Virus record (IMG/VR): IMGVR_UViG_3300018493_000089
Span: 1 to 64,000 of that record
Strand: one strand, 5' to 3'
DNA length: 64,000 nt
Source: a virus
Taxonomy: Duplodnaviria; Heunggongvirae; Uroviricota; Caudoviricetes
The notes below the pieces were generated by a model. It saw only the letters and a program-made list of their open reading frames with translations. It did not search any database and was not told where the DNA came from. Made by a program: the position numbers and the translations under genes. Positions 1,664 to 49,289 of the stretch are shown one piece after another; position 1 is the stretch's first letter; each line of letters starts with the position of its first letter.

Positions 1664-2364
1664 TGGTGAATAAATACGTGATCACAGATGGTATTAGATA
1701 TATTGCAAAAAATAAAGCTGGTTCCTATGTTCCTGAACATGATGCAAGCAAAGCTTTAATTCTTTCTAAAGGTGATGCAGAAAAGATTTATTATAATAAT
1801 TTAGCAAAACCCCTGAGAAAAGTTTTTAGATTGTCAAAAGACGCAGTTCCAACAATAAAATCTTCAGAAAGTACAAAAATTGAAGATACAGCGATTGAAG
1901 ACAAAAAGGTTATCGAATGTAAGCCAGATATAAAAACAACAGATGCAATCATTAAGCAGGATGCGAGTAAAAAAGAAATAAAATACACCAAGCATTATGA
2001 TACAAAATGCGGGCTTGATGATGAATTAACAACACAGATTGTTCAGGTAGTAGAGATATTTAAGAGTGCTGCAACAAAAAAAGCTGATCTACAATCAAAA
2101 TTAGATAAAGTAGAAAAAGAAATTGTTGATATCAACCATTACATTGAATTCAAATCTTTGAATGCATGTGATGGATATAATGCCTACAGAATGTTGCGGG
2201 ACAGATTAACAAAACGAAGAAAATTAAAAAATGAATTAAAGGTTGCAGAAATTCTTGCAAAAGGAATTTTCACAACTTCCGATATTACAGATATTGAGAA
2301 AGTTATTAGTTCTTTCGATAAAAATCAATATCGTCCTAGAGTTCTCAGTGATTTATTTGAATAA
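1663..2364 (+). CDS. hypothetical Lys-rich protein
   Basis: ORF of 233 aa. RBS AGGAGG precedes an ATG that overlaps the upstream stop (TAATGG). Confidence 0.5.
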   Translation: MVNKYVITDGIRYIAKNKAGSYVPEHDASKALILSKGDAEKIYYNNLAKPLRKVFRLSKDAVPTIKSSESTKIEDTAIEDKKVIECKPDIKTTDAIIKQDASKKEIKYTKHYDTKCGLDDELTTQIVQVVEIFKSAATKKADLQSKLDKVEKEIVDINHYIEFKSLNACDGYNAYRMLRDRLTKRRKLKNELKVAEILAKGIFTTSDITDIEKVISSFDKNQYRPRVLSDLFE

Positions 2365-2375
2365 GGAGGATTATC

Positions 2376-2930
2376 ATGAGGGAAGTTTATAAAGTTAAAA
2401 AAGGTGACATTGTTCGACTGGTAAAAGCAAATACATTTGATTATGTGGAACATCCTTATATTGCACATTTTATCAATAAAAATTTTGAAGTCGTTGATGT
2501 AAATAAATATAGAATTACTGTGCTAAGAGATAACACAAAAATCGAATGTTATGCCGAATATTTTTATGATTATTTTAAAGTAGTAAAACCTGCAAAAGTA
2601 AAAGAAGAAACCGAAACAAATAAAAAGCAAACCAAAGTATCCAACGAGAAACCCGTTGAAAAGAAAACAGAAAATAAAAAATGGACTGATTGGACAACAA
2701 TTAAAATTTTCGGTGAGGATTATGCATATAAAACTGATGGTAAAACAGTTATTCTGCGTAATGGTGGTTGTAAGGGTGTAAGCAAATGCCATGATGAGGA
2801 TGAATTTAATTTAACAAAAGGTCTTGAAATTGCATTTAATAGGCTGGTAGCTATGAGAACAGAAAAAGCCATTAATGATGCAAGGGCGGATCTTGATAAA
2901 AAAGTAAAAGTAAAGAAGAGAACTGTATGA
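2376..2930 (+). CDS. hypothetical protein
   Basis: ORF of 184 aa with RBS AAGGAGG upstream. Confidence 0.5.
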   Translation: MREVYKVKKGDIVRLVKANTFDYVEHPYIAHFINKNFEVVDVNKYRITVLRDNTKIECYAEYFYDYFKVVKPAKVKEETETNKKQTKVSNEKPVEKKTENKKWTDWTTIKIFGEDYAYKTDGKTVILRNGGCKGVSKCHDEDEFNLTKGLEIAFNRLVAMRTEKAINDARADLDKKVKVKKRTV

Positions 2931-3184
2931 GAAAAAACTTTACATGCTTAAATTGTTTTTCAGAATTTGATGATTGGGCGGAAGTCGTCGAGTCTCATGG
3001 CTTCGATACTCCGCCATATGAAACACAATAGGTTTGCCCATAGTGTCACGATAATAATATTGTTACAGCTGTATATTGTGATTTATGCTTACAGCCTATT
3101 CATGGCAAATACATTGTCACAGTTGATGGTGATACAATTTGTGACAACTGTTTTGTAAAAAGGGATGTGGAAGATCTAATATGA
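2927..3184 (+). CDS. small zinc-ribbon protein (four Cys pairs) with 2 in-frame TAG codons
   Basis: ATG overlaps the upstream TGA. Cys pairs are CLNC, CP*C, CDLC and CDNC. The frame stays open through two TAGs to a TGA that overlaps the next ATG (ATGA). Confidence 0.45.
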
Positions 3185-3756
3185 AAAATACATTGGTTGT
3201 AAATTTAGTTGGTGGACAAGGTTCTGGGAAATCTACAATGATGGCTCATTTATTTGCATAGTTAAAATGGAATAATATTGACTGTGAAATGTGCAGCGAA
3301 TTTGCAAAGGAGCTTGTTTGGGAAAATCGACAAGAAACATTTAAAGATGAGCTTTATATCTTTGCAAAACAGAATCATAGATTATTTAGATGTAACGGAA
3401 AAGTAGATGTAATTATCACCGATAGACCTTTAATCATGTCTATTGCGTATAACCGGTACTATGGAGACCAAACGGATTATTTTTGGAATGCAGCATACGA
3501 AAGTATTGTTTATGAAACATTTAACAAATAGAAAAACCTCAACATTTTTTTGAATAGAGTAAAACCTTTTAATCCAAATGGAAGAAACGAAAATGAAGAG
3601 GATGCTAAAAAATTTGATGAATATTTTAAAGCCTCTCTTGAAGACCTTCGGCTTCCGTACCATGAATTTGATGGTGATTCCAACAGCGTTGAGGAAATAG
3701 GCGAGATGATTATTGGGTTAATAAAGAGAGGTGAAACAAATGATTCAGAACATTAA
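3181..3756 (+). CDS. P-loop deoxynucleoside / nucleotide kinase-like protein (2 in-frame TAG)
   Basis: Walker A GGQGSGKST and a dNK-like DRPL segment. Two TAGs are bridged by continuous conserved sequence. Confidence 0.55.
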
Positions 3757-3883
3757 TTCATTAGAAAATAATGCTAAGTACATTTATATTGGCAACAATA
3801 AATTTGTGAAAATCTAGTTTGATCGACAAATGGCTGAAAAACTCGCAAATGGCATTAAGGAGATTAAAGTTAATGCCGGATAA
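3740..3883 (+). CDS. small hypothetical ORF (1 in-frame TAG), overlaps kinase 3' end
   Basis: ATG at 3740 and 47 codons, but no strong RBS. Confidence 0.2.
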
Positions 3884-3895
3884 GGGGTTGATTGA

Positions 3896-4372
3896 ATGAA
3901 TAAAAAAATTATTTATTGTTTTATAGCCTTTACATTTGTATTAACTTATACAGTATATGGTTGGTCTAAAAGCAATAAAGAAAACCTAGAAGAAATAGAT
4001 AGGTTAAGTGCTATGGTGGCGATTCAGCAAGAAAAAATTGATGAGTTGGAAAAAGAATTAAATATCACAACAGAAAAAAAGCCACAGAAAAAACATTTAG
4101 GTAAGTTTGAATTATCTTTTTATTCTAAGGAGCAGTTTCCAAATTCTCCGACTGCAACAGGTGTAATGCCAGTTGTTGGAAGAACAATTGCTGTTGATCC
4201 ATCTGTGATTCCATAGGGGACAGCAGTTGAAATTGATGGATTTGGTATTAGATATGCCGAAGATACTGGCGGGGCGATTAAAGGCAATAAAATTGATGTA
4301 TTTGTACAGACAACTGCAGAGGCTCGTCAGCTTGGCAGAAAATTTAATGTTGATGTATGGACAGTTGAATAA
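3896..4372 (+). CDS. 3D-domain (MltA/YocH-like) cell-wall-binding protein with N-terminal TM and coiled coil; 1 in-frame TAG
   Basis: RBS GGGG, TM helix IIYCFIAFTFVL, and the 3D motif AVDPSVIP*GTAVEIDGFG...EDTGGAIKGNKIDVF continuing after TAG at 4214. Confidence 0.6.
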
Positions 4373-4392
4373 CAGAAAGGAAGAGCAACAGT

Positions 4393-5121
4393 ATGGGAAA
4401 GGTTTAGATTCATCCATTTACAACAAAAAAACCAATCACAATGATTGGATATATGGCTGGTGTGTGTTATGGAACAGATGTATCTGACGATGAAAAGAAT
4501 TACAAAAGAGGTATTGATTGTCTAAAATCGCAGCATGGCAGAACATGGGAATTTCCAACAGTATAGATGACGATTGAAGGGTACTCTGCAAGAGTTATGA
4601 GAGAAATTTATACTCATATTGGTGGATCTCCTTCTCGTCTGCAAGCAAGTACAAGATATATTAATTACTCTGATTTTGACTATTTTACCCCTCCTTCTAT
4701 TGAAGCTAATCCAGTAGCAAAAATTATTTATGATTCAACAATTATGAATAATATTATGGCTGGATTAAACGAACTAGAAGAAATGGGTATCCCTAAAGAA
4801 GATTCTGCTAATGCACTACCTCTTGGTATGGAATCTGTTATGGTCGGCAAATATAATTTTAGAACGCTGGCGGATATGTCACATCAAAGAAAATGTGTAA
4901 GAGCGTACCATGAATTCAGAGGATGGTTTAATGATTTAGAAAATTCTTTATCTGAATATTCTGAAGAGTGGGCATATCTTGTAAAAGAACATTTTATGCC
5001 TAAATGTGAACATCTGTTACATTGTCCAGAAAGATTTTCTTGTGGTAAATATCCTCCTAAAAATGTTGTTATGGAACTGATTGCACAGTGGAAAAAACAA
5101 CAGGAGGCAAAATCAGAATGA
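4393..5121 (+). CDS. thyX: flavin-dependent thymidylate synthase ThyX (2 in-frame TAG)
   Basis: ThyX motifs are HGRTWEFPTV*MTIEG, SARVMREIYTHIGG, SxRY (ASTRYINYS) and ALPLGMESVMV...NFRTL. TAGs lie at 4405 and 4564. Start ATG is at 4393. Confidence 0.75.
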
Positions 5122-5639
5122 AAAAATCATTAATTTTACTTGTCGGAAAATCTGGTTCCGGTAAAACGACAATCGCAGAATAGCTTGAAAAGAATTATGG
5201 ACTAACAATGCTTGAATCATATACAACAAGGCAACCCAGGTACGAGGGTGAAAGAGGACATATTTTTGTTACAAAAGAGGAATTTGAAAAAATGCCTAAC
5301 AAAGTGGCGCACACATTTTTTGATGGAAATGATTATTGGGCAACACAAGAACAATGTGATGAATCAGATGTCTATGTGATCGATCCTGATGGCATCAAAA
5401 CATTTAAAAGAATTTATAATAGCCCAAGACCATACAAAATTGTTTATTTAAAAATAAGTCCGATTGTTAGATTTTGGCGAATGACAAAACGTGGTGATGG
5501 CGTAATGAAATCAATTAGACGTATTATGCATGACCATAAGAAATTTGGAAAATTTGAAAATGAGTTTGGCGTAAAAATTATTAAAAGAGACCCTGTTTGG
5601 AGCATTGCCAAACAAATTCATGAAATGAGGTCATTATGA
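5118..5639 (+). CDS. guanylate kinase-like nucleoside monophosphate kinase (1 in-frame TAG)
   Basis: P-loop GKSGSGKTT and guanylate-kinase motif SYTTRQPRYEGERGHIFVTKEEF. TAG at 5181. Confidence 0.6.
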
Positions 5640-6091
5640 TGAAATATTCTACAGTTGTGTAGATTTCACATCCATATGGCGGATTAAAGGAAAACGAGGA
5701 TATTGTGGCTGAGTTAATTATTGAACTCAGTCGCAAATTCCCGGAGTATTTATTTATCTCGCCAATCCACGCTTTTTCTTTCACATACAAAACAGAAAAG
5801 AAATATCAAGACGGTCTTGATAAATGTTTATGGTTGTTAGATCAGTGTGATGAAATGTGGGTTTTTGGCAAATATAGAGAAAGCATTGGATGTATGGCTG
5901 AAATCGAATATTGTAATGAGCATCATATTTATTATCAAGCAATCAATGACAATTGTTTAAAAATCATGGCAGAACCAAGAAAGTGCTGTGATTGTGGATT
6001 GATGGAAATAGATGAGCAATATGCAATTTGCAATAAAAGTTTTGTAAGTCAGATTTATGAAAAGGTTTGTGGTAAACATGGACAAGAATAA
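5636..6091 (+). CDS. nucleoside 2-deoxyribosyltransferase-fold (DUF4406-like) protein (1 in-frame TAG)
   Basis: SHPYGG...FISPIHAF...CDEMWVFG pattern typical of the NDT-like fold. The frame is open across the TAG at 5660. Confidence 0.45.
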
Positions 6092-6228
6092 AAAATTATT
6101 GCTTGAGTTGATTTGTGATAGACAGATTGCATTATTATTACAAGACAGTACAAATTATGAATCTGCAAAATATAAGCAATTAGAGAAACTGAAAGTATAT
6201 GTCAAAGATATTAAGGAGGGTGTTGCTA

Positions 6229-8469
6229 TTGAAGGTAATTAAAAGAAACGGTACAGAAATGTAGTTTGATTCAAATAAGATTAAAATAGCGATTTTAAAA
6301 GCATTTGTTGATGTAGATGGTGAAGAAAGCCAGTATGCAAAAGACAAGGCGAGAGATATTGCTAATTATATCGCATCTTTAAATAAAACAATGTCTGTAG
6401 AAGAAATCCAAAATATCGTTGAAGAAAAACTGATGGCTAGCAATAGAAAAGATGTAGCCAGAGCATATGTTCGATACAGATAGATGAGAGATATGGCAAG
6501 ATCCCAGTACGATGGTTTTATGCAAGCCATTAGGGAAAAGGTTGAAGCTTCAAATGTTCAAAATCAAAACGCCAATGTAGATGAACATTCTTTTGGTGGC
6601 AGAACCGGCGAGGCAACAGACACAATGATGAAAAAGTATGCTCTTGACTATTGTGTGTCAAAAATGGCTAGAGACAACCATCTGAATAATATTATTTACA
6701 TTCATGATCTGAATTCTTATGCCGTAGGCATGCATAACTGCCTGTCAGTACCTTTAGATGATTTGCTGAAAAATGGGTTTAACACAAGACAGACTGATGT
6801 ACGTCCTGCAAATTCTGTTAATACAGCATTTCAGCTTGTAGCAGTGTTATTCCAGTTGCAATCACTAATGCAGTTTGGCGGCGTGTCCGCTACCCATATT
6901 GACCATACAATGGTTCCTTATGTGAGAAAGAGTTTTTATAAACATCTAATGGATGGTTTTAAGTATATTGAGGGCGTAGCAGAGCCTAGAAAATATATGT
7001 ATCAAGAAAACGCTGATGAATTTTGGACTCAATACACTGATATTGATGACAAGGATTTAAAAGCAGCGCATCCTAAAGCATACCAATACGCAATGGATAT
7101 GACGACAAAAGAGACATATCAGGCAGTTGAAGGTATGTAGCATAACCTCAATACACTGCAGAGTAGATCTGGTAATCAGCTTCCATTTAGTTCTGTGAAT
7201 TACGGCACGTGTACTCTACCAGAAGGCAGAATGGTAACAAAAGCGTTGTTAGAAGTATCAATCAATGGTATCGGCAAACTACATAGAACGTCTGTGTTCC
7301 CTTGTGGTATTTTCCAGTGTATGAAAGGCGTAAATAGAAAACCTGGCGATCCTAACTACGATTTGTTCCAATTGGCATTAAAATCTACAGCACAGAGACT
7401 GTATCCCAATTATGCCAATGTGGATTGGAGTAATAACGCAGGATACGATATTAATGACCCTAGAACATATTTTAGTACAATGGGTTGTCGTACAGCCAAC
7501 CTGTTCGACATTAATGGCTTAGGTCAGCTTAAAGATGGTAGAGGCAACATCTGTCCTGTAACAATCATTATGCCTACATTGGCTATGATGGCAAAAGAAC
7601 TGTACGAAGACCAGACTTACGATACACATGCTAATATTGTAGATATTTTCTTATACATTCTCGACCAAAAAATTCATGAGGCAAAAGATATGCTTATTGA
7701 ACGATTTGAGTGGATTTGTAAACAGAATCCAAAATCTGCAAAATTCATGTATGAAAATAATCTAATGGCTGGTTATGTTCCAGAAGAAGGAATTAGAAGC
7801 GCTTTAAAACATGGCACCCTAGCTTTAGGTCAGTTAGGTCTTGCGGAAACACTGCAGATTCTAATTGGTTGTGACCATACAACAAAAGAAGGTATGGATT
7901 TGGCAAAACAGATTGAGCAGTTATTCAAAGATAGATGTGCTGAGTTCAAACAAGAATATCAACTGAATTTTGGTGTTTATTATTCTCCAGCAGAAAATCT
8001 TTGTCATACAGCAATGAGAAAATTCCAAGAACAATATGGCGTGATTGAAAAAGTATCTGATAAAGATTATTTTACAAACTCTATGCATATTCCTGTATGG
8101 CATAAAATGACACCATTTGAAAAGATTGATTTAGAAGCGCAGTTAACAGGATACTCTAGTGCTGGATGTATTACATATGTAGAACTTGAATCTTCAGTAA
8201 AACATAACATCGAGGCACTTGAAACACTTGTTAATTATGCAATGGATCAGGATATTCCTTATTTTGCAATTAATGTTCCCAATGATACATGTTTAGATTG
8301 TGGTTATTGCGATGAAATTAATGATGTTTGCCCCATGTGCGGAAGCAAAAGAATTCAGCGTTTACGTAGAGTAACTGGTTATTTAACAAATGATTACAAA
8401 ACAGCATTTAATTATGGCAAACAACAAGAAGTTGAAATGAGAGAAAAGCATAGTGGGGTATCCGTATGA
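6229..8469 (+). CDS. nrdD: anaerobic ribonucleoside-triphosphate reductase NrdD with N-terminal ATP-cone (3 in-frame TAG; TTG start)
   Basis: SD AGGAGGG sits 8 nt before TTG. ATP-cone VIKRNGTEM*FDSNKI and NrdD motifs NTLQSRSGNQLPFSS, GIGKLHRTSVFPCGIF. The C-terminal Zn and glycyl-radical region reads CLDCGYC...CPMCGS...RVTGYL. TAGs lie at 6262, 6481 and 7138. Confidence 0.85.
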
Positions 8470-9011
8470 GAATTATAGATATTACAACATGCAGTGTTGC
8501 TGATGGTTTAGGGTTCCGTTTGGTAATTTGGTGTGCTGGATGTGAACATCATTGTGAAGGATGTCATAATCCTGAATCATGGGATTGTAACGCTGGACAC
8601 AAACTAACAGATAAAGACCTTGATACAATATTTGATCAACTAGAATTTGATTATATTAAAGGAATCACATTTAGCGGAGGAGATCCTTTGCATCCACAAA
8701 ATGTAGAGCAAGTTTATAGACTCTGCAGAGTGATTAAAGAAAATTATCCGGATAAAACAATTTGGATATATACAGGATATAAATTTGAGAACATTTATTA
8801 CGAACCTGGTTGTTTTATGACTCAAGATTGTAATCCAGCAAGGGATCTTAGAAACGAAGTGCTGAAATATATCGATGTGCTTGTTGATGGCGAATTCGTT
8901 CACGACAGAAGAAATGTAACAATTGCTTTTCGAGGTAGCGATAATCAAAGACTAATTGATGTTCCAAAATCATTAAAGGCGTGGAAAGCAGTTATTTATG
9001 AGCAGGAGTAA
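8466..9011 (+). CDS. nrdG: anaerobic RNR activating protein NrdG (radical SAM)
   Basis: Radical-SAM cluster motif CEHHCEGC, overlapping nrdD stop; no TAG. Confidence 0.85.
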   Translation: MRIIDITTCSVADGLGFRLVIWCAGCEHHCEGCHNPESWDCNAGHKLTDKDLDTIFDQLEFDYIKGITFSGGDPLHPQNVEQVYRLCRVIKENYPDKTIWIYTGYKFENIYYEPGCFMTQDCNPARDLRNEVLKYIDVLVDGEFVHDRRNVTIAFRGSDNQRLIDVPKSLKAWKAVIYEQE

Positions 9012-9022
9012 CATCCTGCTCT
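8999..9022 (+). terminator. GC-rich hairpin after nrdG (AGCAGGA-gtaaca-TCCTGCT); weak terminator or attenuator
   Basis: 7-bp stem with a 6-nt loop, but no clean T-tract. Confidence 0.25.
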
Positions 9023-9042
9023 CTATTAAAAGAGGTAGTCTT

Positions 9043-9660
9043 ATGGGAAAAGAATTGAGTTTAAGAAATTAGAATCTTGTTATCGGAGTGATGCTCCTTT
9101 GGGGTTTTATTGTAAATGTATTTACATGTGCATTTGGTGGAGAATATTTTGCTTCAATTAGTCCAGTGAAATTATTAATAGGGTATTTTATTACAGCCAT
9201 TATTGGTATTTGTATGAGCGCATTTTCAGAAAATCCGTTTGTAAGTTTCATTGGTTATAACTTGGTTGTATTACCTATCGGCGCTGTATTAAGTGTTACA
9301 TTACAAGATGTTGCAAAACTAACAATCCTTATGGCGTTTGGTGCAACTGCGTGCATGACATGCTTAATGATGATAGCAGCAACATTGAAACCGCAATTGT
9401 TTTTATCAATGGGTAGAATTCTGTTTATGAGTTTGCTTTTTGTAATTATAATTGAGCTTCTAATGGTCGTGTTTTGCGGTGTATCTCCAACAATAATTGA
9501 CTTTGTTGTGATTGCTTTGTTCTGTTTATATGTAGGATATGATTGGGCAAAGGCGCAAGAGATGCCAAAAACATTGGATAATGCGGTAGATAGTGTTGTT
9601 GGACTGTATTTGGATATTGTAAATATTTTTATCAGACTCATTGATATTATGGAAGATTAA
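9043..9660 (+). CDS. Bax-inhibitor-1 / YccA-family multi-pass membrane protein (1 in-frame TAG near N-terminus)
   Basis: RBS AGAGG precedes ATG 9043. Seven predicted TM segments and the family C-terminal signature GLYLDIVNIFIRLIDIM. TAG at 9070. Confidence 0.5.
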
Positions 9661-9672
9661 GGAGTGCCTTGC

Positions 9673-9918
9673 ATGATAAACAAAAAAACTTGGGAAGAAT
9701 TTAGAGATTCTGGAATGTTATGGTAGATCAATATGATTCTGCATATCTTTGGATGGTCAATTGTAGTTGAATTAGAAGATAAAAAAATAATAAATGCATA
9801 TCCGGCAAGGGTAAAATTTAGGGGATTTTCCGAAGAGAATAATACAGAAGGATATAGAAAAGTAAGCAAATATATGTATGAAAACATTAATGAGATTTTA
9901 GAAGAAGCAGAAAACTAA
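9673..9918 (+). CDS. hypothetical Trp-rich small protein (1 in-frame TAG)
   Basis: RBS AAGGAG sits 8 nt before ATG, and the frame stays open through the TAG at 9724. Confidence 0.4.
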
Positions 9919-9929
9919 GGATTGATTAA

Positions 9930-11207
9930 ATGAAAACAGTAATCAAAATATTTGAGCAATTAAAAAACACCTCTGGCAAAAAAGATAAAGAGGCAATTAT
10001 TGAAACCAATAAGGATAATGAATTATTCAAAGAATGTCTGGTATTTCTGTTAGACGATAATGTGACTACAGGTATCGCAAAAAAATCCTTGCAAAAGAAC
10101 ATCAAATGCGACGGCGACATTATGTTATTAGTATCTTGGCAAGATTGTATGTCTTATTTAAAAGAAAATAATACTGGTAAAGATTACGACATTTTAGTTG
10201 CACAAGGTTTTGTAAAATTCCAAGATGAAGCAGATAGATGGTTTTATGAAGGTATGATTACCAAAACACTTAAAATTGGTTGCGATAAAGCAATTGTCAA
10301 TAAAGTGATTCCACAATTAATTCCAGATTGGAAAGTTCAGCTAGGTTCTTCGTTTGAAAAATTGAGATTGAAAGATAACGAAAAATTCTTTTTAAGTAAA
10401 AAAATGAATGGACATAGAGGATCATTTTATGAAGGCAAATTTATTTCTCGCCAAGGTAAAGAAATATCTGGTTTACAACATATCATTGACGATATTGAAA
10501 AACTATATCTTAGTACATACTTTATCGACGGCGAATTGATAAGGAAAAATGTAGAGAATCTTGATGATAACGAGAATTTCAGAATCACATCGAGTATTTT
10601 AAATTCTGATACAGAAGATAAATCTGACATTGAGTTTGTAATTTTTGATATTTTTCCAGCAGATACAATTGTTGGCAATCATACTATCGAAAATTATAGT
10701 GAACGGAAAAAGCGGATGAAAGATTTAGAGTATCTTTTTCAACATAATAATATTCGTAACTTGAAAATTGTCGAAATGGTGTATGAAGGTACAGATCCTA
10801 ATCAAATTCATAAATGGCTAAAATATGCTGTAGATAATGACTGGGAAGGGATTATGCTAAACAAGGATGTTCCTTATGTGTTTAAACGCACAACGAATGT
10901 TATAAAAATCAAACAGTTTTTATCCATAGATTTAAGAATCATCGGGTATGAAGAAGGTCAAGGAAAAAACGAAGGAAAGCTTGGAGCTTTTGTTGTTGAT
11001 TATAAAGGCAATAAAGTTGAAATTGGCGGTGGATACTCAGATGAAGAGCGTGCAACCTTTTGGGAACACAGGGATGAGATGATTGGAAAAATCATAGAAA
11101 TTAAATATAAAGGTGAATCCCAAAATAAAAGGAGTGGGTTAAAGAGTCTTCAGTTTGCAGATTTTGTCTGCATCAGAAACGATAAAAATGACCCTAGTTA
11201 CAACTAA
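9930..11207 (+). CDS. ATP-dependent DNA ligase
   Basis: Nucleotidyltransferase motifs are KMNGHRG (KxDG), FIDGELI, FVIFDIF and WEGIMLNKD...KIK. No TAG. Confidence 0.75.
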   Translation: MKTVIKIFEQLKNTSGKKDKEAIIETNKDNELFKECLVFLLDDNVTTGIAKKSLQKNIKCDGDIMLLVSWQDCMSYLKENNTGKDYDILVAQGFVKFQDEADRWFYEGMITKTLKIGCDKAIVNKVIPQLIPDWKVQLGSSFEKLRLKDNEKFFLSKKMNGHRGSFYEGKFISRQGKEISGLQHIIDDIEKLYLSTYFIDGELIRKNVENLDDNENFRITSSILNSDTEDKSDIEFVIFDIFPADTIVGNHTIENYSERKKRMKDLEYLFQHNNIRNLKIVEMVYEGTDPNQIHKWLKYAVDNDWEGIMLNKDVPYVFKRTTNVIKIKQFLSIDLRIIGYEEGQGKNEGKLGAFVVDYKGNKVEIGGGYSDEERATFWEHRDEMIGKIIEIKYKGESQNKRSGLKSLQFADFVCIRNDKNDPSYN

Positions 11208-11221
11208 GAGGTGATAGTTAT

Positions 11222-11929
11222 ATGAGTCGAATATTTGTGACGGGCGATACACACGGAGATTTTTTCCATATATAGAATTTCTGTCTTGATAATAATACTA
11301 GCATAGACGACATTATGATTGTTTGTGGCGATGCTTGCATAAATTTTTATCTTGATAAAAGAGATGACAGACTTAAAGAAAGAATAGCTGGAATACCAAT
11401 AACATTTCTAATTGTGCATGGAAACCATGAAGAACGAGCTTGGAATGTTAAGGGTTATAAACTGAAAGAACATAAAATTGGAACAGATAATTATGTGTAT
11501 GGATATAGCGAAGAAAAATATCCAAATATAATTTTTGTTCAAGATTTTCATATTGAAACATTGAACGGAAAAAGATTTATGTTCCTTGGTGGTGCTTATT
11601 CTGTAGATAAATTCTATAGATTAGCAATGAACTGGTACTGGTTTGAATCTGAGCAAATGCCAGAAGAGGAAATGCTAGAGGTCTTAAAATTTGTCACAAG
11701 CGTAAGTAATTTCGATTATGTTGTGTCACATACATGTCCGTATAAATATATTCCAACAGAGGCGTTTTTGCCATCGATTAACCAGAATACAGTTGATCAG
11801 AGTACAGAATATTTCTTAGATGAAGTTGATGATTTAATTCAATACAAACAATGGTATTGTGGGCATTGGCATATCAAAAAAGAAATTCAAAAATTAAAAT
11901 TCTTATTTGACGATATTATTGAAATTTAA
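11222..11929 (+). CDS. calcineurin-like metallophosphoesterase (1 in-frame TAG)
   Basis: Motifs GDTHGD, IVCGDA and GNHE. Frame open across the TAG at 11273. Confidence 0.7.
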
Positions 11930-11938
11930 GGTGATTAC

Positions 11939-12304
11939 ATGGATAAGCAGGAAAGAATAACCCAGTTAAAACAAGAAATACGTGAAAAAGAAAAAGAATT
12001 ACATAAACTCGAAAAAGAGATTAATACAGAATTTTTACCTCAATTCGTAGGAAAGTATTTCAAAAGTAAAAATGATTTTTATTACTTAAAAGTATGTGAA
12101 TATGATGAAGAGTTAAATTTGCTAAAAGGTTGGGGAATAACGATAGATAAAGACTGGAATAAAAACAATTTATACACAGCAGAATATTTATCATTTATGC
12201 ATTACCATCTTTTTGACGACAAAACTGAAATCAGCGAAAAAGATTTCGGTGTTGTTTTAAATATATACATCAATTCAATTAAAACAAGTATAGAAAAGGG
12301 GTGA
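11939..12304 (+). CDS. hypothetical coiled-coil protein
   Basis: ORF of 121 aa. Confidence 0.5.
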   Translation: MDKQERITQLKQEIREKEKELHKLEKEINTEFLPQFVGKYFKSKNDFYYLKVCEYDEELNLLKGWGITIDKDWNKNNLYTAEYLSFMHYHLFDDKTEISEKDFGVVLNIYINSIKTSIEKG

Positions 12305-12308
12305 AAAT

Positions 12309-12506
12309 ATGGTTACGTTTTTAGGATTCATGGCTATCGCTAGTGGCATTGTTTTGAGGGCATAGCTCACAATCGATCATCATTGTTCTGACAGAGACAA
12401 ACTAGAACTTAAAGACATTGCAGGTTATATGGTAATCGCAGGTGTCGCTATCATCTTAATTAATACATGGATTGCAAAGCCAGTGATAATTTGGTTGGGA
12501 GGTTAA
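12309..12506 (+). CDS. small two-TM membrane protein (1 in-frame TAG)
   Basis: RBS GGGGTGA. Two hydrophobic helices. Confidence 0.35.
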
Positions 12507-12507
12507 T

Positions 12508-12672
12508 ATGAACCCGGTAGTTATTTTAATAGTTATATTAGTTGCTATTGTTATTTGGCTCTGTTTATCCAAAAAGTTTGTTTGGATTGGGGATAAATTA
12601 TATAACATGTTTAGCGACACAAGAGATATTTTGAGCGAAGAGTTTGATAAAGAAAAGGAGAACAAAAAATGA
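12508..12672 (+). CDS. small single-TM membrane protein
   Basis: RBS GGAGG precedes the ATG (TAAtATG). N-terminal TM VVILIVILVAIVIWL. Stop overlaps the next ATG. Confidence 0.35.
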   Translation: MNPVVILIVILVAIVIWLCLSKKFVWIGDKLYNMFSDTRDILSEEFDKEKENKK

Positions 12673-13580
12673 TGTATGATTACGAAGCGTATGAAAAAGA
12701 AAGAGAAGAAAAACGAAAAAAAGTCAAAAAAGGTCTGATTGGTGGCGGTGTTGTTGCATTTGTTTTACTGATCGGTATTGGTTGTGCCGCTGCATGTATC
12801 GAAAAAATTCCAAACGGCTATTGTGGTGTTCAGTACTCCATGAACGGTGGTATTAAAGATGAAGTTCTAACACAGGGTTGGCATTTCGTATCTCCTTTTG
12901 TGCATGTTAAAGAATTTACAGTTGCCAATGAACAGCTGGTAATGTCTAAGGATGCGAGAGATGGCAGTGAATCTGATGATAGCTTTAATGTGGCAACAGC
13001 AGACGACGCAAGCATTGCAATCAGCTTCAGAATGGAATATGCATTTATTCAGGATGAACTTCCTGATACATTCAAGAGATACCGTGGCATGAGTGGTGAA
13101 GATATTGTTAATAACCGTGTAAGAGGTATTCTGAAATCTAAAATTTCTGAAGTAACAACTAACTATACAATGATGGATATTTACTCCGGCAATCGTAGTG
13201 AAATCAACAGAAAAATTCTGAATCATCTGAACGAAGAATTTAAAGATACATATGGTATTACAGTAATCAATGCAGATATTATTGATGTACATCCAGATGC
13301 ACAGCTACAGCAGACAATTGATAATCGTGTAAAAGCACTGCAGCAGAAACAAGAGGCTCAGGCTAAACAAGAAACAGCAAAAGTAGAAGCCGAAACAGAA
13401 CTGATCAAAGCTAAGAATGCGGCTGATATTGAAATCACAAAAGCAAAGGCTGAAGCAGAAGCCAACAGAGTTATCTCTGAAAGTATTACACAGGGTCTGA
13501 TTGATATGAAAAATGCAGAAGCAAGAATGCAGCATGGCTGGGTAACAATTAAGGGCGCAAATACTGTTGTAACAAAATAA
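12669..13580 (+). CDS. SPFH / band-7 (prohibitin/HflK-like) membrane protein with C-terminal coiled coil
   Basis: N-terminal TM, band-7 core YCGVQYSMNGGIKDEVLTQGWHFVSPF, then an Ala/Lys/Glu-rich coiled coil. Confidence 0.7.
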   Translation: MMYDYEAYEKEREEKRKKVKKGLIGGGVVAFVLLIGIGCAAACIEKIPNGYCGVQYSMNGGIKDEVLTQGWHFVSPFVHVKEFTVANEQLVMSKDARDGSESDDSFNVATADDASIAISFRMEYAFIQDELPDTFKRYRGMSGEDIVNNRVRGILKSKISEVTTNYTMMDIYSGNRSEINRKILNHLNEEFKDTYGITVINADIIDVHPDAQLQQTIDNRVKALQQKQEAQAKQETAKVEAETELIKAKNAADIEITKAKAEAEANRVISESITQGLIDMKNAEARMQHGWVTIKGANTVVTK

Positions 13581-13592
13581 ATTGGAACGAAT

Positions 13593-13616
13593 GGGCGGGG
13601 TTCATTCTCCGCCCTA
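13593..13616 (+). terminator. GC hairpin GGGCGG-ggttcattct-CCGCCC immediately after SPFH gene
   Basis: 6-bp GC stem in an AT-rich context. The T-tract is imperfect. Confidence 0.35.
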
Positions 13617-13629
13617 TTGGAGAAGTAGT

Positions 13630-13911
13630 ATGAAAAAAGAAGATTTTGAATTTATCAAACTGGATGAAAAATATAAAGACTATTGGTTCAAGGTAAAAGA
13701 TAGATCTGTGTCTGAGGCAGTTTTAACTGAACGATATATGGAGCAATCTATGGTTTGTGTATCTGAGGTTGTTTATTCTGTTCACGATGATGTTTTAGGT
13801 GTAAAGCAGCTATTTCCATTTAGCTTTTATGTATTACCAGTGCAAGATGAAGAATTGAAAAAAATAATTTTTTCTTTAATTGATGATATTAAAAAGGAAG
13901 AAGTGAAATAA
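13630..13911 (+). CDS. hypothetical protein
   Basis: RBS GGAG precedes ATG 13630. About 93 aa. Confidence 0.45.
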   Translation: MKKEDFEFIKLDEKYKDYWFKVKDRSVSEAVLTERYMEQSMVCVSEVVYSVHDDVLGVKQLFPFSFYVLPVQDEELKKIIFSLIDDIKKEEVK

Positions 13912-14826
13912 ATGCAATTTTGTAGCAAAGAAGATATTAAAGATTATATTGAAACAAGAAAAGCAGATATCAAAAAATCCGTTCAAAAAAATACCAGCAT
14001 GGGATTTGATGTTCCCACACTGGCGATTATTCAAGTCGGTAGCAATCCTGCATCTAACAAATATGTAAATGGCAAAATTAAGGATTGCGAAGAAGTTGGA
14101 ATGAAAGCTGTATTACATAAATTTAATGAAGACATTGAACCTGTAGATTTTGGAACAGAGATTATTAAAATCATGCATGATGAAATGATTCATGGTGTAA
14201 TTATCCAGAAACCACTGCCCGAAAAATTAGAAAAATATTTTGATAAGTTTGTAAAAATGATTCCAAAGAAAAAGGATGTCGATGGATTTAGAAAAGATAC
14301 TGAGTTCGATCCTTGTACTCCTAAAGGAGTGGTGGATTATATTGAAAGCAGACAGGGTAAAGACTGGCTGACAGGTAAAGATGTTGTCATTATCAATCGT
14401 ACAGAATTGGTTGGTAGGCCACTTGCAAAAATGATGTTGGATAGAAATGCGACAGTTACTGTTTGTCATAGTAAAACAGAGCGTCTGCGGAATCATTGCC
14501 AGTATGCAGACATTGTTGTGAGTGCTATTGGCAAACCTAAAATTTTAATTAGAGACTATGTTAAGCATGACAGTGTATGTTTTGATGTAGGAATTAGTTT
14601 TGATGAAAACGGAAAAATGTGTGGCGATTTTGACAGAGATAACGTAATGAAAATAACAGATTATTGCACACCTGTTCCTGGCGGCGTCGGTTTACTGACA
14701 AGAATTGCTCTTGTAGAAAATGTATTAAAAGCATATGAAAATCAGAAGTATAGAGCAAGTATGATTCCTAATGCAGAAAAGGATGAAAACAATGTGGGGA
14801 ATTACAAGTCTTATGAGAGAAAATAA
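13912..14826 (+). CDS. folD: bifunctional methylene-THF dehydrogenase / methenyl-THF cyclohydrolase FolD
   Basis: Motifs [36 protein letters not shown] and [10 protein letters not shown]. Confidence 0.85.
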
Positions 14827-15514
14827 TCACACTGGAGCCAACGAAATTGATACATATATTTCAGAAGTAAATAGTCAGGATAACTTTATTGCTGAAGTTA
14901 ATTCTTTGCCGATGCCGGAAAGTTATCCTCACGAAAATGATAGATTTTACATTCCAGAAGAATATAAAAATATGACTAGCAAACAATTAAAAAATGCTAA
15001 AAAAGCATGGGAAAATTATTTTAAAGAAAGAGAAAAAATGAGGGAATCATTATTTGGAGAAGGAGCAACTACCATGAATAAAAAAGAAATTAAAATTAAA
15101 TATTTTACAGATGAAATCGAAAAGCTTCGCTATATTGATGGAAAATCTGATTGGATTGATCTTAGAGCAGCAGAAGATGTTTCAATTAGTGCTGGTGAAT
15201 TTAAACTAATCCCTCTTGGTGTGGCAATGCAATTACCAGAAGGTTACGAAGCACATATTGTTCCTCGTAGTTCTACATTTAAAAATTTTGGCGTGATTCA
15301 GACAAATCACATGGGCGTTGTTGATGAAACATATTGCGGCGATAATGATCAGTGGTTTATGCCTGTATATGCGGCGAGAGATACTGTAATTAAAACAAAC
15401 GACAGGGTTTGCCAGTTTAGAATTGTAGAACATCAGCCAGCGATTGATTTTATTGAAGTTGAAGAGCTGGGAAATGATGACAGAGGCGGTCATGGCAGTA
15501 CAGGCAAGCAGTAA
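14792..15514 (+). CDS. dut: dUTPase with ~95-aa N-terminal extension (canonical core also startable at ATG 15075)
   Basis: dUTPase motifs [16 protein letters not shown] and [10 protein letters not shown]. There is no stop between the 14792 ATG and the core. An internal RBS AAGGAG precedes the ATG at 15075. Confidence 0.65.
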
Positions 15515-15526
15515 GAGGTGATATTG

Positions 15527-15820
15527 TTGATTAAAAGAGCATATGCAAGACATCTTGCTGATAAATATAATTAGAATATAGAGAGTCTGATTATCGAAGC
15601 AGCAAACATGGGTAAATATGAAATTGAGTATATTGTACCAATTCCTTCTGATAAACCTTGGTGTAAGTATGACTATCAAGATAAGGCATATCAATTAGCA
15701 CACAATATTGAAAAAAATGGATATCAAGTTGAAGTGAGATGTGAAGAAATCGCCGCAACAAATACAATCGGTAAAAGTGTATACACATCCATATCATATA
15801 TTTTAAAAATTAAATGGTGA
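15527..15820 (+). CDS. hypothetical protein (TTG start, 1 in-frame TAG)
   Basis: SD AAGAGG sits 8 nt before TTG. The frame is open through the TAG at 15572. Confidence 0.35.
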
Positions 15821-15824
15821 TATT

Positions 15825-15959
15825 ATGAAAAAAGAATAGCCGGAAAAAGAAACATTAATAGAAGAATTCTTGCGTGTAAATAATATTACAACTCAGGAAG
15901 ACTTGGAAGAATAGATCAAAAACCATAAAACTATAAATATAGCTTTGTTTACCAAATAA
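15825..15959 (+). CDS. small hypothetical ORF (2 in-frame TAG)
   Basis: 44 codons that end just before the terminator. Confidence 0.2.
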
Positions 15960-15966
15960 ATAAAAA

Positions 15967-15998
15967 GAGTGGCTATTTTTAGGTAGCCACTTTTTTTT
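15967..15998 (+). terminator. rho-independent terminator closing the plus-strand module
   Basis: AGTGGCTA-ttttt-TAGCCACT followed by TTTTTTTT. Confidence 0.7.
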
Positions 15999-16053
15999 AT
16001 GCAAAAAATATGTTATTATAAATGATAAATGTTTTTTTAGATAAGGAGTGAGT

Positions 16054-16215
16054 TATGTTAAATAATAAAGATATGAACGAGCTAGAAAGACAGCGTTATT
16101 ATATGAATATCGTTAAAGAGAAAGTGGCTCAAAAAAGTCGAGAACTTGGTAGACCACTTTTCATGACAGTTAAAACCTTCGGCTGTCAGATGAACAATAC
16201 TAACATGATATTGTA
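16054..16215 (+). pseudogene. phage-borne 5' fragment (53 codons) of a miaB-like methylthiotransferase gene; probable attP-associated reconstituting gene start
   Basis: RBS AAGGAG; translation ends ...RPLFMTVKTFGCQMNNTNMIL*. FGCQMN is the MiaB N-terminal cluster signature, but the ORF stops after 53 aa and abuts the recombinase 3' end. Confidence 0.55.
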
Positions 16216-16245
16216 AACCTTGATATATCAACGATATAAGAAGTT
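16190..16245. other. candidate attP core (contains perfect palindrome TTGATATATCAA)
   Basis: Placed between the miaB fragment and the integrase 3' end. Palindrome at about 16219-16230. Confidence 0.25.
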
Positions 16246-17883
16246 CTGTGTTAAGCCATTCTTAAATTTAATTGCCAAAACTGTGCTGTTATCACCCACA
16301 GAAACATAATCAATAACATTATTGAAGAAATCTTGTAGTTGTTTTTCATCAACATTCACGGCTAATTCTTGATAGGAAATTTCTTTTCCTCTGCCGAGTT
16401 CCCAGTCGATGATACATCTATCAAGTAATTTATTGTCAACCAGTGGAAGCATTGCATCTTTATTCTGATTTGCTGCATGTATCTGCTGGTTGATTTCATT
16501 TAATTCAGCAGTTAATTTTGTTCTTTTTTCGAGATAATCTCTTTCAGGCATACTGTCATCAGAAAACAGATATAAATCATCCAACCTTTTTAAAGCTCTC
16601 TCGATTTTTTCTTGACGCTGTTTAAATACTTCTGTGTCAGAATATTCAGTATTATGACTGACTGTGATAAGTTTATTCGGCTTGTAACCACATTTTAAAA
16701 CTTCTTTTATATCCTCGATACTCTGTTGACTGATATATGCAACATCTTTGAAGGCTTTACCAGATAGTAATCTTTCTTCTAAGTTAGTAAAGTCTTTACT
16801 GTTTTGAATGGTAATCATATTACTCATATAATTTAAAATGAAATTACCAAGATATGTATCCGTGATAGCGCCTTTACTCATACAGGTATTACCGTGCATT
16901 CTGTTAGAGCATCTATAAGAAGAAGGGTGGTATCCATTTTTTCTTTTAGTATCTTTGTGTGCAGATGTGCCTCCGCCACATAATCCACATTTTAATAAAC
17001 CGCTAAAAGAATGTGTATGACCGCCCACAATTCTTCGTCTGCATGGTTCAGCTCTTTTTTGAAGAATTGCATTCACTTTATCAAACTGTTCTTGTGAAAT
17101 AATTGCTTCATGATTATTTGGTACAATGACCCATTCTTCTTCTGGTCTAATCTTACCTCTACCACTTTCTTGGTAGTTGTATCTTAGTGTACCAATGTAG
17201 AAGGGGTTTCTTAGCGTCTGTGTGATGGATTTAGCATACCAGTTACCATTTCTCTTGGTTGGAATCTTTCGTTCATTTAAGAGCCTTGCAATGCGTAATA
17301 CGGATGGTTCTCTTTCGTATTCATCAAAAATCATTTGTACAATCTTCTTTTCATCTTCATCAACAACTGGATACATGCTTTCTGGATCAAATTTGTATCC
17401 TAATGGAGCCGCTGTGCCATTCCATTTACCTTCTTTGGCTCGTGAAATCATTGTTGCTCTTACTCTGACTGCAGTCATTTCTCGTTCCAACTGAGCAAAT
17501 GTCATGATGATATTCAACATTGCTCGACCCATAGGTGTGTCTGTCTGAAAATTATCAGTCTTACTTACAAACTGAATATCTAAATCTTCAAACTCATCCC
17601 ACATTTTTGCGAAGTCACCAATGTTTCTAGAAATTCTATCTAGTTTCCAAACTACAACATGAGAAAATTCTTTATTTCTCAACCTTTGCATCATACTCTG
17701 AAAAGCGGGACGATCTGTATTCTTAGCAGAATACCCAGCATCTTCAAAAATTTCATAATCTTTGACACCAAGAACAATCTCACAATAATTGATTAAATCT
17801 TTTTTCTGCATTGGAAGTGAATCTTTATCTGCTTGATAAATTGTACTTACTCGTACATAGATTGCTGCTTTACTGTTTTTAAT
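16228..17883 (-). CDS. large serine recombinase (phage integrase), no canonical start codon; probable ATT initiation
   Basis: N-terminus AAIYVRVSTIYQ with the catalytic Ser. Resolvase core, recombinase domain, zinc ribbon CGLCGGGTSAHK...YRC and a coiled coil. The reading frame opens after a TGA. It contains SD AAAGGAGG followed by ATT ATT ATT and has no ATG/GTG/TTG before the catalytic Ser. No TAG. Confidence 0.8.
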   Translation of the reverse strand: MKNSKAAIYVRVSTIYQADKDSLPMQKKDLINYCEIVLGVKDYEIFEDAGYSAKNTDRPAFQSMMQRLRNKEFSHVVVWKLDRISRNIGDFAKMWDEFEDLDIQFVSKTDNFQTDTPMGRAMLNIIMTFAQLEREMTAVRVRATMISRAKEGKWNGTAAPLGYKFDPESMYPVVDEDEKKIVQMIFDEYEREPSVLRIARLLNERKIPTKRNGNWYAKSITQTLRNPFYIGTLRYNYQESGRGKIRPEEEWVIVPNNHEAIISQEQFDKVNAILQKRAEPCRRRIVGGHTHSFSGLLKCGLCGGGTSAHKDTKRKNGYHPSSYRCSNRMHGNTCMSKGAITDTYLGNFILNYMSNMITIQNSKDFTNLEERLLSGKAFKDVAYISQQSIEDIKEVLKCGYKPNKLITVSHNTEYSDTEVFKQRQEKIERALKRLDDLYLFSDDSMPERDYLEKRTKLTAELNEINQQIHAANQNKDAMLPLVDNKLLDRCIIDWELGRGKEISYQELAVNVDEKQLQDFFNNVIDYVSVGDNSTVLAIKFKNGLTQNFLYR

Positions 17884-21378: not shown

Positions 21379-21380
21379 AT

Positions 21381-23471: not shown

Positions 23472-23472
23472 T

Positions 23473-49207: not shown

Positions 49208-49289
49208 CTATCTATTTCCTTTTTTAACAACCCTATAAGCCAAATAGTGATTAACACTTGGGGGAACAGGGGAGACGAGATATAATTTA

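Follow-up and report, generated by a model that had tools for sequence, protein, structure and literature searches.

A gene module predicted to supply dTTP and other deoxynucleotides under anoxia, with in-frame TAG codons probably read as tyrosine, in a likely temperate phage of gut Clostridia

The 64,000-nucleotide window analysed here (positions 1 to 64,000 of IMG/VR record IMGVR_UViG_3300018493_000089, a tailed-phage sequence) is about 33% GC and shows a strand bias that divides it, at about 15.8 kb, into a + strand block that starts at position 1 and a - strand block. Our subject is the set of nucleotide-metabolism genes at 3181-15514 in the + block, which includes a thymidylate synthase of the ThyX type, a class III (anaerobic) ribonucleotide reductase (RNR) with its activase, a FolD and a dUTPase. 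When TAG codons are read through, this interval resolves into 21 contiguous + strand open reading frames (ORFs), which were assigned with Pfam, PHROGs and NCBIfam profiles. All the genes that an earlier sequence-only reading of this DNA had listed lie where it placed them, on the + strand, provided that TAG is read through. A 16.5-kb contig from a public run (L084) carries identical DNA and gave equivalent gene calls. The assigned genes of the interval, with their supporting matches, are as follows.

3181-3756 (+): P-loop kinase for (deoxy)nucleoside monophosphates, Tmk-like; AAA_28 59 bits, PHROG 2107 'thymidylate kinase' 84 bits; TAG at 3259 and 3529
3896-4372 (+): 3D-domain protein with an N-terminal membrane anchor; Pfam 3D 64 bits; TAG at 4214
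4393-5121 (+): ThyX of the 'THIGG' clade; Pfam Thy1 (PF02511) 94 bits, cut-off 24.8; TAG at 4405 and 4564
5118-5639 (+): Gmk-fold kinase; Guanylate_kin 30.3 bits (cut-off 25.2), AAA_18 34 bits, PHROG 1815 134 bits; TAG at 5181
5639-6091 (+): DUF7768/DUF4406 protein with the fold of nucleoside 2-deoxyribosyltransferase (NDT) and a Cys-rich C-terminal tail; PHROG 355 'nucleoside 2-deoxyribosyltransferase' 57 bits; TAG at 5660
about 6229-8469 (+): NrdD, class III RNR with ATP-cone; NRDD 472 bits, ATP-cone 72 bits, Gly_radical 33 bits; TAG at 6262, 6481 and 7138
8466-9011 (+): NrdG activase (radical SAM); Fer4_12 152 bits, Radical_SAM 34 bits
9043-9660 (+): Bax1-I/YccA-type membrane protein, outside the pathway; Bax1-I 70 bits, also called in L084; TAG at 9070
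9930-11207 (+): ATP-dependent DNA ligase, a replication gene and not one of nucleotide supply; DNA_ligase_A_M 43 bits, DNA_ligase_OB_2 55 bits
11222-11929 (+): calcineurin-like metallophosphoesterase; Metallophos 40 bits, PHROG 1649 96 bits; TAG at 11273
12669-13580 (+): SPFH/Band-7 membrane protein; Band_7 96 bits; one relative (L157) has one too
13912-14826 (+): FolD, bifunctional 5,10-methylene-tetrahydrofolate (methylene-THF) dehydrogenase/methenyl-THF cyclohydrolase; PF02882 THF_DHG_CYH_C 168 bits, PF00763 THF_DHG_CYH 86 bits, PHROG 7320 256 bits
15074-15514 (+): trimeric-type dUTPase core, ORF open from 14771; PF00692 48 bits (cut-off 22) over residues 130-243 of the long ORF, PHROG 135 143 bits
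in-frame TAG sites of the module (+): 3259, 3529, 4214, 4405, 4564, 5181, 5660, 6262, 6481, 7138, 9070, 9724 and 11273

The interval had been described as a dense nucleotide module, and the genes and their conserved clustering bear this out, with the qualification that about half of the ORFs lie outside nucleotide metabolism, with the 3D-domain protein, the Bax1-I protein, the ATP-dependent DNA ligase, the SPFH protein and some eight small ORFs without an assigned role interspersed among the others.

Under the standard code, six of the listed genes (those for the Tmk-like kinase, ThyX, the Gmk-fold kinase, the NDT-fold protein, NrdD and the phosphoesterase) are split, as they would be if the TAGs were genuine stops and the module a non-functional set of decaying pseudogenes. 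A three-frame read showed, however, that every frame break is an in-frame TAG, never a TAA or TGA, that there are no frameshifts, and that homology runs on across each TAG. The 13 in-frame TAGs of the module fall in nine genes of 3181-11929, with none in 11939-15514, and the window as a whole has 46 of them in 65 genes, terminase, portal-adjacent and capsid genes included. They occur 3.2 times per 1000 codons in the + strand block versus 2.0 times in the - strand block, where the structural genes lie; the stops of the window are TAA (41) and TGA (24). The restriction of the breaks to TAG, the homology across them and the pairing of TAG with tyrosine in close relatives effectively refute the pseudogene reading, a tRNA(CUA) in the nearest relative also speaks against it, and we leave it next to no probability.

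The TAG codons were first assumed to encode glutamine (code 15), and the database copy of the phage ThyX shows Gln at both of its TAG sites; this assignment was dropped for the window on the alignment evidence, with no effect on the family assignments. The TAG contexts include AVEGM[Y/Q]HNLNTLQSR in NrdD and EIPNQLV[Y/Q]ISSASSIDTPFYSK in the large terminase subunit (TerL). The TAG of the DUF7768 gene falls in a column with Tyr in at least 90% of 30 homologues, and of 88 informative ThyX homologues that use the standard code, 68 have Tyr opposite TAG. An empirical-substitution likelihood over 20 TAG positions, each with at least 3 homologues, placed Tyr first (-58.3, versus -67.6 for Gln). A comparison with the two closest relatives, L095 (TerL 79% identical) and L156 (NrdD 81% identical), was decisive and worked in both directions: where a window TAG met a sense codon in a relative, it was Tyr in 11 of 15 cases, and where a TAG of the relatives met a sense codon of the window, it was Tyr in 8 of 11, a reciprocal total of 19 out of 26. 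Two farther TAG users (L134 and L137) gave no Tyr in 53 positions, with Gln as the commonest residue, and the pairing method therefore tells both codes apart. Tyrosine accounts for 5.2% of the codons in the window (818 TAT and 190 TAC).

A candidate decoder is present in L095, which has a tRNA array 4-8 kb 5' of its terminase gene. This array includes, at L095:2821-2907, an 87-nt class II tRNA with the anticodon CTA and a long variable arm, which is 73% identical to the phage tRNA-Tyr(GTA) of a relative (L128:2050-2137); its four best matches are all tRNA-Tyr, and tRNA-Gln genes are 54-55% identical to it. The E. coli amber suppressor supF is a tRNA-Tyr with a G34-to-C change, and in sequence the L095 tRNA resembles it, looking like a tRNA-Tyr with that same change. 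An exact-pattern scan for this suppressor tRNA returned the L095 contig itself and nothing else. Neither tRNA genes nor, at the gathering threshold, any Rfam family was found in the 64-kb window; in the phage of the window itself, a tRNA lies at the equivalent position just past the window end, in a same-phage contig (L158). We hold it probable from these alignments that the 46 TAGs of the window, the 13 of the module among them, would be read as Tyr by a phage-borne supF-like tRNA-Tyr(CUA), a natural reassignment in a temperate Clostridia phage lineage. Since the module genes contain TAG, their full translation would then take place only while the suppressor tRNA is expressed.

A survey of recoded phages reported only TAG-to-Gln and TGA-to-Trp where the phage code differs from that of the host (10.1101/2021.08.26.457843), and a later tool paper named those two codes plus an unsupported TAA-to-Tyr, and no others (10.1101/2022.06.29.495998). 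The window resembles the code-15 gut phages in its in-frame TAGs, in the phage-borne tRNA(CUA) that a relative carries and in an integrase free of TAG, which agrees with the recoding model published for such phages (10.1101/2021.08.26.457843), but differs in that its TAGs stand opposite Tyr, not Gln, and are no less frequent in early and nucleotide genes than in structural ones. We found no literature report of TAG-to-Tyr in phages. If true, the assignment differs from the codes that have been reported in phages (TAG-to-Gln and TGA-to-Trp/Gly); code-15 gene callers would mistranslate this lineage, the set of natural phage codes would be larger than reported, and recoding would reach early and nucleotide-metabolism genes, with a module for deoxynucleoside triphosphates (dNTPs) gated by a suppressor tRNA. 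The earlier account was silent on TAG codons inside genes; the module is functionally ordinary, its code less so.

The fold of the ThyX at 4393-5121 is well recognised, its sequence less readily so. An AF2 model (pLDDT 82.6, with the substrate loop disordered) was compared by Foldseek with the Protein Data Bank (PDB), and the top 50 matches were all ThyX (best E 5e-8, TM 0.49-0.54); no solved ThyX structure came up in a single-sequence phmmer search of the PDB, and with the family profile the Thermotoga maritima enzyme is reached only at E=0.005. We mapped residues onto T. maritima ThyX by an HMM alignment and an independent hhalign run, which gave the same register, anchored by a conserved Ser five residues past the motif and by S-x-R-Y. 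The signature RHRxxS is absent; the aligned residues are T74-H75-I76-G-G-S79, in which His and Ser alone are kept. From T. maritima to the phage, R78 becomes T74, R80 becomes I76, R147 becomes A139, H53 becomes R50 and H178 becomes R170, while H79 (H75 in the phage), S83 (S79), S88 (S86), R90 (R88), Y91 (Y89), N163 (N155), R165 (R157) and R174 (R166) are kept; the phage protein also has a two-residue insertion in the substrate loop. In a 17-sequence family alignment S86, R88, Y89, R157 and R166 are invariant. In solved ThyX structures the RHR residues bind the phosphates and ribityl of flavin adenine dinucleotide (FAD), and the first Arg also touches the isoalloxazine ring and the 3'-OH of deoxyuridine monophosphate (dUMP); R147 (R172 in Mycobacterium tuberculosis) anchors the dUMP phosphate, and R174 (R199) and R90 (R107) hold the uracil (PMC6514825, PMC9571937, PMC3498832). 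The kept and changed contacts therefore indicate a pocket in which the uracil side is intact and the phosphate and FAD-phosphate side is rebuilt. Canonical flavin-dependent thymidylate synthases (T. maritima TM0449, M. tuberculosis, PBCV-1) thus have the same fold and share the Pfam Thy1 match, and the phage protein differs from them in T-H-I-G-G for RHR, in the R147A, H53R and H178R changes and in six invariant Cys.

These cysteines (C25, C43, C168 and, at the C-terminus, C205-x5-C211-x5-C217) are absent from T. maritima ThyX and common to chromosomal and phage copies of the clade (4393-5121; L015/L091, L047, L052, L058, L060), and they possibly form a metal or Fe-S site. The motif across the clade is THIGG, or THVGG/RHVGG; one protein, P0298, still has RHR and yet shows the C-terminal Cys motif. 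When 1.84 billion cluster representatives were searched exhaustively, a compact clade of 77 representatives (50%-identity clusters) emerged, with E up to 1e-30. With one genome scanned per species, the same clade (54-63% identity) was found in the genomes of 322 species, nearly all gut Clostridia; some of these loci are prophage-like and many are plainly chromosomal. In an Oscillospiraceae metagenome-assembled genome (MAG), ThyX is flanked on one side by UvrC, RsmD, CoaD, pyruvate carboxylase, an SLH protein and dihydrofolate reductase (DHFR), and on the opposite side by a DEAD helicase, DprA, an ABC transporter and Tex; on a 1.9-Mb contig its neighbours include an acyl-CoA synthetase and Rho. 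DHFR directly adjoins ThyX in 13 distinct loci, mostly of Lachnospiraceae and Acetatifactor; in 12 loci of the Lachnospiraceae type it follows ThyX by about 10-120 bp on the same strand, the classic arrangement of thymidylate synthase and folA. The phage ThyX has every family-invariant residue of the chromosomal copies. The active-site check that the sequence-only reading had proposed thus gave a two-sided answer: the site is non-canonical (THI for RHR, A139 for R147), but as a lineage trait and not as a phage specialisation. This RHR-less, Cys-rich clade appears to be undescribed and seems to supply the housekeeping thymidylate synthase in many gut Lachnospiraceae and Oscillospiraceae, as well as the enzyme of their phages. 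Because ThyX is a target for antibacterials, a variant active site in abundant commensals bears on inhibitor selectivity and mechanism.

Three called fusions join ThyX to other enzymes: P0157 has a Gmk-like kinase N-terminal to ThyX, P0298 has one C-terminal to it, and P0192 combines ThyX with a MazG-like (PRA-PH) NTP pyrophosphatase. If real, they are as expected of a line that runs from dUTP through dUMP and deoxythymidine monophosphate (dTMP) to dTDP. The start of the Gmk-fold kinase of the window overlaps the ThyX stop (ATGA); the kinase is 37% identical (E 2e-30) to the fused kinase domain of P0298 and 28% to that of P0157, and it adjoins ThyX in L001, L156 and L157 as well. It scores 42 bits against TIGR03263, below the cut-off of 160. 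The earlier label 'GMP kinase' is therefore right at the level of the fold only, and 'dNK-like', given to the kinase at 3181-3756, is better replaced by Tmk-like; both kinase labels hold for the fold alone. The fusions point to a pyrimidine rather than a GMP role, the Gmk-fold enzyme is probably a nucleotide kinase coupled to ThyX, and phage 'Gmk' proteins encoded beside ThyX may really be dTMP kinases; conserved adjacency and the called fusions suggest the Gmk-fold kinase as a ThyX partner, for which the phage label 'guanylate kinase' may mislead. The kinase at 3181-3756 scores 19 bits against Thymidylate_kin, under its cut-off of 27, and 17 bits against TIGR00041, under its cut-off of 83, and has a DRPxxxSxAY motif; its homologues come after NrdG in the prophage-like loci L012, L016, L038 and L042.

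The protein encoded at 5639-6091 scores 24.7 bits against the DUF7768 profile (cut-off 26), the classical PF05014 family was not detected in it, and single-sequence phmmer against the PDB gave nothing meaningful. Its AF2 model (pLDDT 86.6) had NDTs (2a0k, 8pq*), MilB and DNPH1 as best Foldseek matches (prob 1.0, E about 2e-3, TM about 0.5), a modest structural match that is explained in part by the Cys-rich C-terminal tail. The invariant residues are S11, H12, N20, S42, H45, Y51, Y57, S83, G85 and E89, and S83-x-G85-x3-E89 falls where NDT-superfamily enzymes have their nucleophile, an acidic residue that follows the fourth strand. The earlier NDT-fold label is supported by the modelled structure and this invariant motif.

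The remaining enzymes are closer to known families. NrdD has an RVTGY glycyl-radical motif and a C-terminal CxxC...CxxC (CLDC...CPMC), and NrdG a CxxxCxxC (CEHHCEGC); the NrdD ORF is open from 6199, and its start is probably the TTG at 6229, which follows AAGGAGG. FolD contains the catalytic YxxxK as Y51-V-N-G-K55; its best NCBIfam model scores 233 bits, below the cut-off of 421, and it is thus not an equivalog of a curated subfamily. Homologues occur in 55 of 50,697 phage records, Lak megaphages included, so that FolD is rare in phages and not new. The FolD of the Lak megaphages and of a few gut contigs is likewise bifunctional and phage-borne (35-42% identity); that of the window differs in adjoining a dUTPase and in belonging to a Firmicutes phage of the ~100-kb class. 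The dUTPase has the motif RGGHGSTG and reaches 75 bits against TIGR00576 (cut-off 102.6). A strong ribosome-binding site (15056-15065; GGAGAAGGAG) stands 8 nt before its ATG at 15074. The frame is open for about 100 codons before the dUTPase core (14771-15073), with a 56-nt overlap with the 3' end of FolD, and the PHROG dUTPase profile matches from residue 74 of the long ORF, 5' of ATG 15074; this stretch is possibly an N-terminal extension of about 100 aa or possibly an untranslated spacer.

The sequence-only reading had also likened the combination of ThyX, kinases and NDT-fold protein to toolkits for hmU (5-hydroxymethyluracil) or other non-canonical thymidine. On that account an RHR-less ThyX would act as a hydroxymethylase or C5-transferase, leading to 5-hydroxymethyldeoxyuridine or a hypermodified thymidine, the kinases would act on the modified nucleotide, and the NDT-fold protein and the phosphoesterase would clear dTMP and dTTP. 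The replacement of RHR by THI, the loss of R147 and a ThyX score below the equivalog cut-off would suit such a change of function; so would a pair of kinases without an assigned specificity, the structural nearness of the NDT-fold protein to enzymes such as DNPH1 and MilB, which act on C5-modified pyrimidine nucleotides, and a nucleotide-sugar cluster elsewhere in the window. However, many Clostridia, which need ordinary dTMP, carry this ThyX variant, down to its invariant residues, on the chromosome beside DHFR; its uracil contacts are kept, and the called kinase and MazG-like fusions fit the line from dUTP to dTDP. Among the ORFs of the 64-kb window, Pfam and PHROGs detected no ThyA-family hydroxymethylase, 5-hmU DNA kinase, DNA glycosyl- or aminoacyl-transferase, methyltransferase or dTTPase, and the DNA-modification genes that had been proposed as a check are thus not in evidence there. 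The toolkits of SPO1, PhiW-14 and ViI-type phages, which resemble this region in combining a pyrimidine-C5 enzyme, nucleotide kinases and a dUTPase, are built around dUMP hydroxymethylases of the ThyA family, together with 5-hmU DNA kinases and transferases, and those enzymes were not detected in the 64-kb window. Known hmU pathways rely on hydroxymethylases of the ThyA family, and we know of no ThyX-type hydroxymethylase. Because THIGG ThyX is a Clostridia lineage trait and no modification gene is found in 64 kb, modified thymidine is not supported, and we regard it as highly improbable.

Relatives of the phage, which are uncultured viral contigs of about 57 to 216 kb, bear on whether these genes form a unit. 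Six of them (L087-L090, L156 and L157), with proteins only 50-80% identical, retain 3D-ThyX-kinase-DUF7768 in this order with NrdD-NrdG after it, and the 3D-domain gene, although not one of nucleotide metabolism, stands directly 5' of ThyX in all six. DUF7768 lies just 5' of NrdD in a further phage group as well, and the series DnaE-ThyX-NrdD-NrdG-kinase-Dut occurs in prophage-like loci of Clostridia genomes, that of the isolate Dysosmobacter segnis BX15 included. Another such locus, in a Flavonifractor MAG, also has a FolD-Dut pair; this pair is recorded for the prophage-like locus L027. This recurrent core order in related gut phages shows that the module is a conserved feature and not a chance cluster. 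It could still be argued that there is no integrated pathway, the early region being a mosaic of auxiliary genes that were acquired separately and are each useful alone. The interspersed 3D, Bax1-I, ligase, SPFH and small ORFs are in keeping with this, as are FolD, Dut and the Tmk-like kinase, whose presence and position differ among relatives; moreover, a promoter and terminator scan of 1-16600 gave no operon-defining signal above shuffled expectation. The retention of the ThyX-kinase-DUF7768-NrdD-NrdG order at such protein divergence, the ATGA overlap of ThyX and kinase, the fusions called in both domain orders and the biochemically consecutive steps argue the other way, and we find a mosaic of this kind unlikely.

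We therefore favour, as the likely interpretation taken jointly, that the module is the nucleotide-precursor part of an early/replication region, making canonical dNTPs with emphasis on dTTP, and that its source is a large, AT-rich, temperate, SPbeta-like phage of obligately anaerobic gut Clostridia. In the proposed pathway, NrdD activated by NrdG would convert NTPs to dNTPs without oxygen. A class III RNR yields dNTPs, so that dUMP would arise by way of dUTP, with the dUTPase, converting dUTP to dUMP, as the gate to ThyX. The host-type ThyX would then make dTMP from dUMP with 5,10-methylene-THF, and because ThyX gives back THF, a phage DHFR would be unnecessary. FolD may top up methylene-THF from the formyl/methenyl-THF pool; the formyl-THF pool is expected to be large in fermenting, formate-producing Clostridia, and FolD would equilibrate methylene-THF with it. 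The Gmk-fold kinase coupled to ThyX presumably takes dTMP onward, the Tmk-like kinase may phosphorylate dTMP or other deoxynucleoside monophosphates in salvage, and the NDT-fold protein may serve salvage or clean-up of (deoxy)nucleosides or nucleotides; the inclusion of the metallophosphoesterase is a guess. This line from NrdDG through Dut and FolD-supplied ThyX to the kinases bears out the pathway reading that had been made from the sequence. The module is one more, unusually complete, phage nucleotide-metabolism set, suited to anoxia in its class III RNR, ThyX and FolD.

Several points weigh against this interpretation. ThyX reaches 52.6 bits against the NCBIfam equivalog TIGR02170, below the cut-off of 87.9; its two RHR arginines are missing, and so is the phosphate anchor of T. 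maritima R147, which is Ala139 here. We found no literature report of an RHR-less ThyX or of an assay on a clade member, and the ThyX-kinase fusions could be gene-calling artefacts. The profiles assigned no substrate to the NDT-fold protein, the metallophosphoesterase or either kinase. The host is inferred rather than demonstrated, the window covers 64 kb of a genome that probably exceeds 100 kb, and the NeuB/cytidylyltransferase/radical-SAM sugar cluster at 20557-23480 has no explanation in the pathway.

An anaerobic host had been proposed from the module. NrdDG by itself is no proof of obligate anaerobiosis; the ThyX type and the prophage-like modules in genomes of obligately anaerobic gut Clostridia nevertheless lead to the same conclusion. 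The best inference, from sequence comparisons, is an obligately anaerobic gut member of the Clostridia (Oscillospirales or Lachnospirales), because the ThyX is of the host type, prophage-like relatives lie in Oscillospiraceae and other Clostridia genomes, the sole isolate match is a Clostridioides phage, and no aerobic RNR was found in the window or in the relatives' loci. The 12.3-kb region had no megablast match among 50,697 phage records, and TerL had only a weak one among isolated phages (Clostridioides phage, 25%), so that there is no cultured relative at hand; two more scans of viral contigs with structural proteins gave 1 and 3 loci. A bacterial-chromosome reading of the region was considered and rejected. 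The loci of the phage group have 30-36% GC versus 42-55% for chromosomal loci with the same ThyX type, and the base composition of an AT-rich phage is a plausible driver of the module.

The archetype of phage dNTP sets is T4, whose nucleotide-precursor genes comprise td, frd, nrdAB, nrdDG, gene 1 (a deoxynucleoside monophosphate kinase) and dCTPase/dUTPase. Both phages carry an RNR, a source of dUMP, a thymidylate synthase and nucleotide kinases for their own replication, and NrdD and NrdG occur in both. Here, unlike in T4, ThyX takes the place of ThyA and FolD that of DHFR, only the anaerobic RNR is seen, the hydroxymethylcytosine branch is absent, an NDT-fold protein belongs to the conserved core, and the genes contain TAG sense codons. 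Another parallel is the SPbeta-like temperate phages of Bacillus: they too are large temperate phages of Firmicutes, and the gene kinds in common are an RNR, a dUTPase, an ATP-dependent ligase, a polymerase of the DnaE type and a large serine recombinase. The same-phage contig L158, which reaches 2.1 kb past the window end, has SPbeta-type YonG_N and YonJ_CC domains adjoining the terminase; with the serine recombinase, these domains speak for a temperate, SPbeta-like phage. The RNR of SPbeta is of the aerobic class Ib and its code is standard, and we know of no ThyX or FolD in it.

The - strand block, which marks the sequence as that of a phage, holds lysis genes, a RusA-like resolvase, tail, capsid, portal and terminase genes, and the following genes of interest.

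16228-17811 (-): large serine recombinase (integrase), a context gene; Pfam Resolvase 109 bits, Recombinase 101 bits, Zn_ribbon_recom 38 bits
20557-23480 (-): sugar-nucleotide cluster between lysis and structural genes; NeuB-family synthase 211 bits, one HAD-like plus mannose-6-phosphate-isomerase/cupin protein, CTP_transf_3 cytidylyltransferase 31 bits, radical-SAM/SPASM enzyme
48734-49324 (-): RusA-like Holliday-junction resolvase amid structural genes; PHROG 34 105 bits

The recombinase is convergent with the module and has no TAG codon, which is consistent with a lysogeny gene that can be read under the standard code of the host. The resolvase has three TAGs, the highest TAG density of the window. 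The composition of the sugar cluster suggests a predicted synthesis of a nonulosonic- or keto-sugar nucleotide. Between the + and - blocks lies a palindromic, terminator-like hairpin (15968-15991).

Minor features of the relatives were also noted. In L157 (13615-16425) a thioredoxin-like gene and a small ferredoxin-thioredoxin-reductase-like gene flank NrdD, and an IS605/Cas12f-like (TnpB) element stands between DUF7768 and NrdD; in others, inteins or homing endonucleases occur in NrdD or DnaE (L089, L090, L151-L153), and the anti-defence genes Tad4 and Gad2 lie 3' of NrdG (L087-L090). The small phage L154, which is unrelated, has a Metallophos gene directly beside a DUF7768 gene. The same-phage contig L158 begins within the 3' end of the tRNA, about 2.1 kb past the window end, and L158:1-320 then has a 44-aa ORF with a weak Pfam match to the ribosome-rescue factor ArfA, beyond which come YonJ_CC, a beta-CASP nuclease and YonG_N; an ArfA-like small ORF beside the tRNA array of a recoded phage is possibly worth attention.

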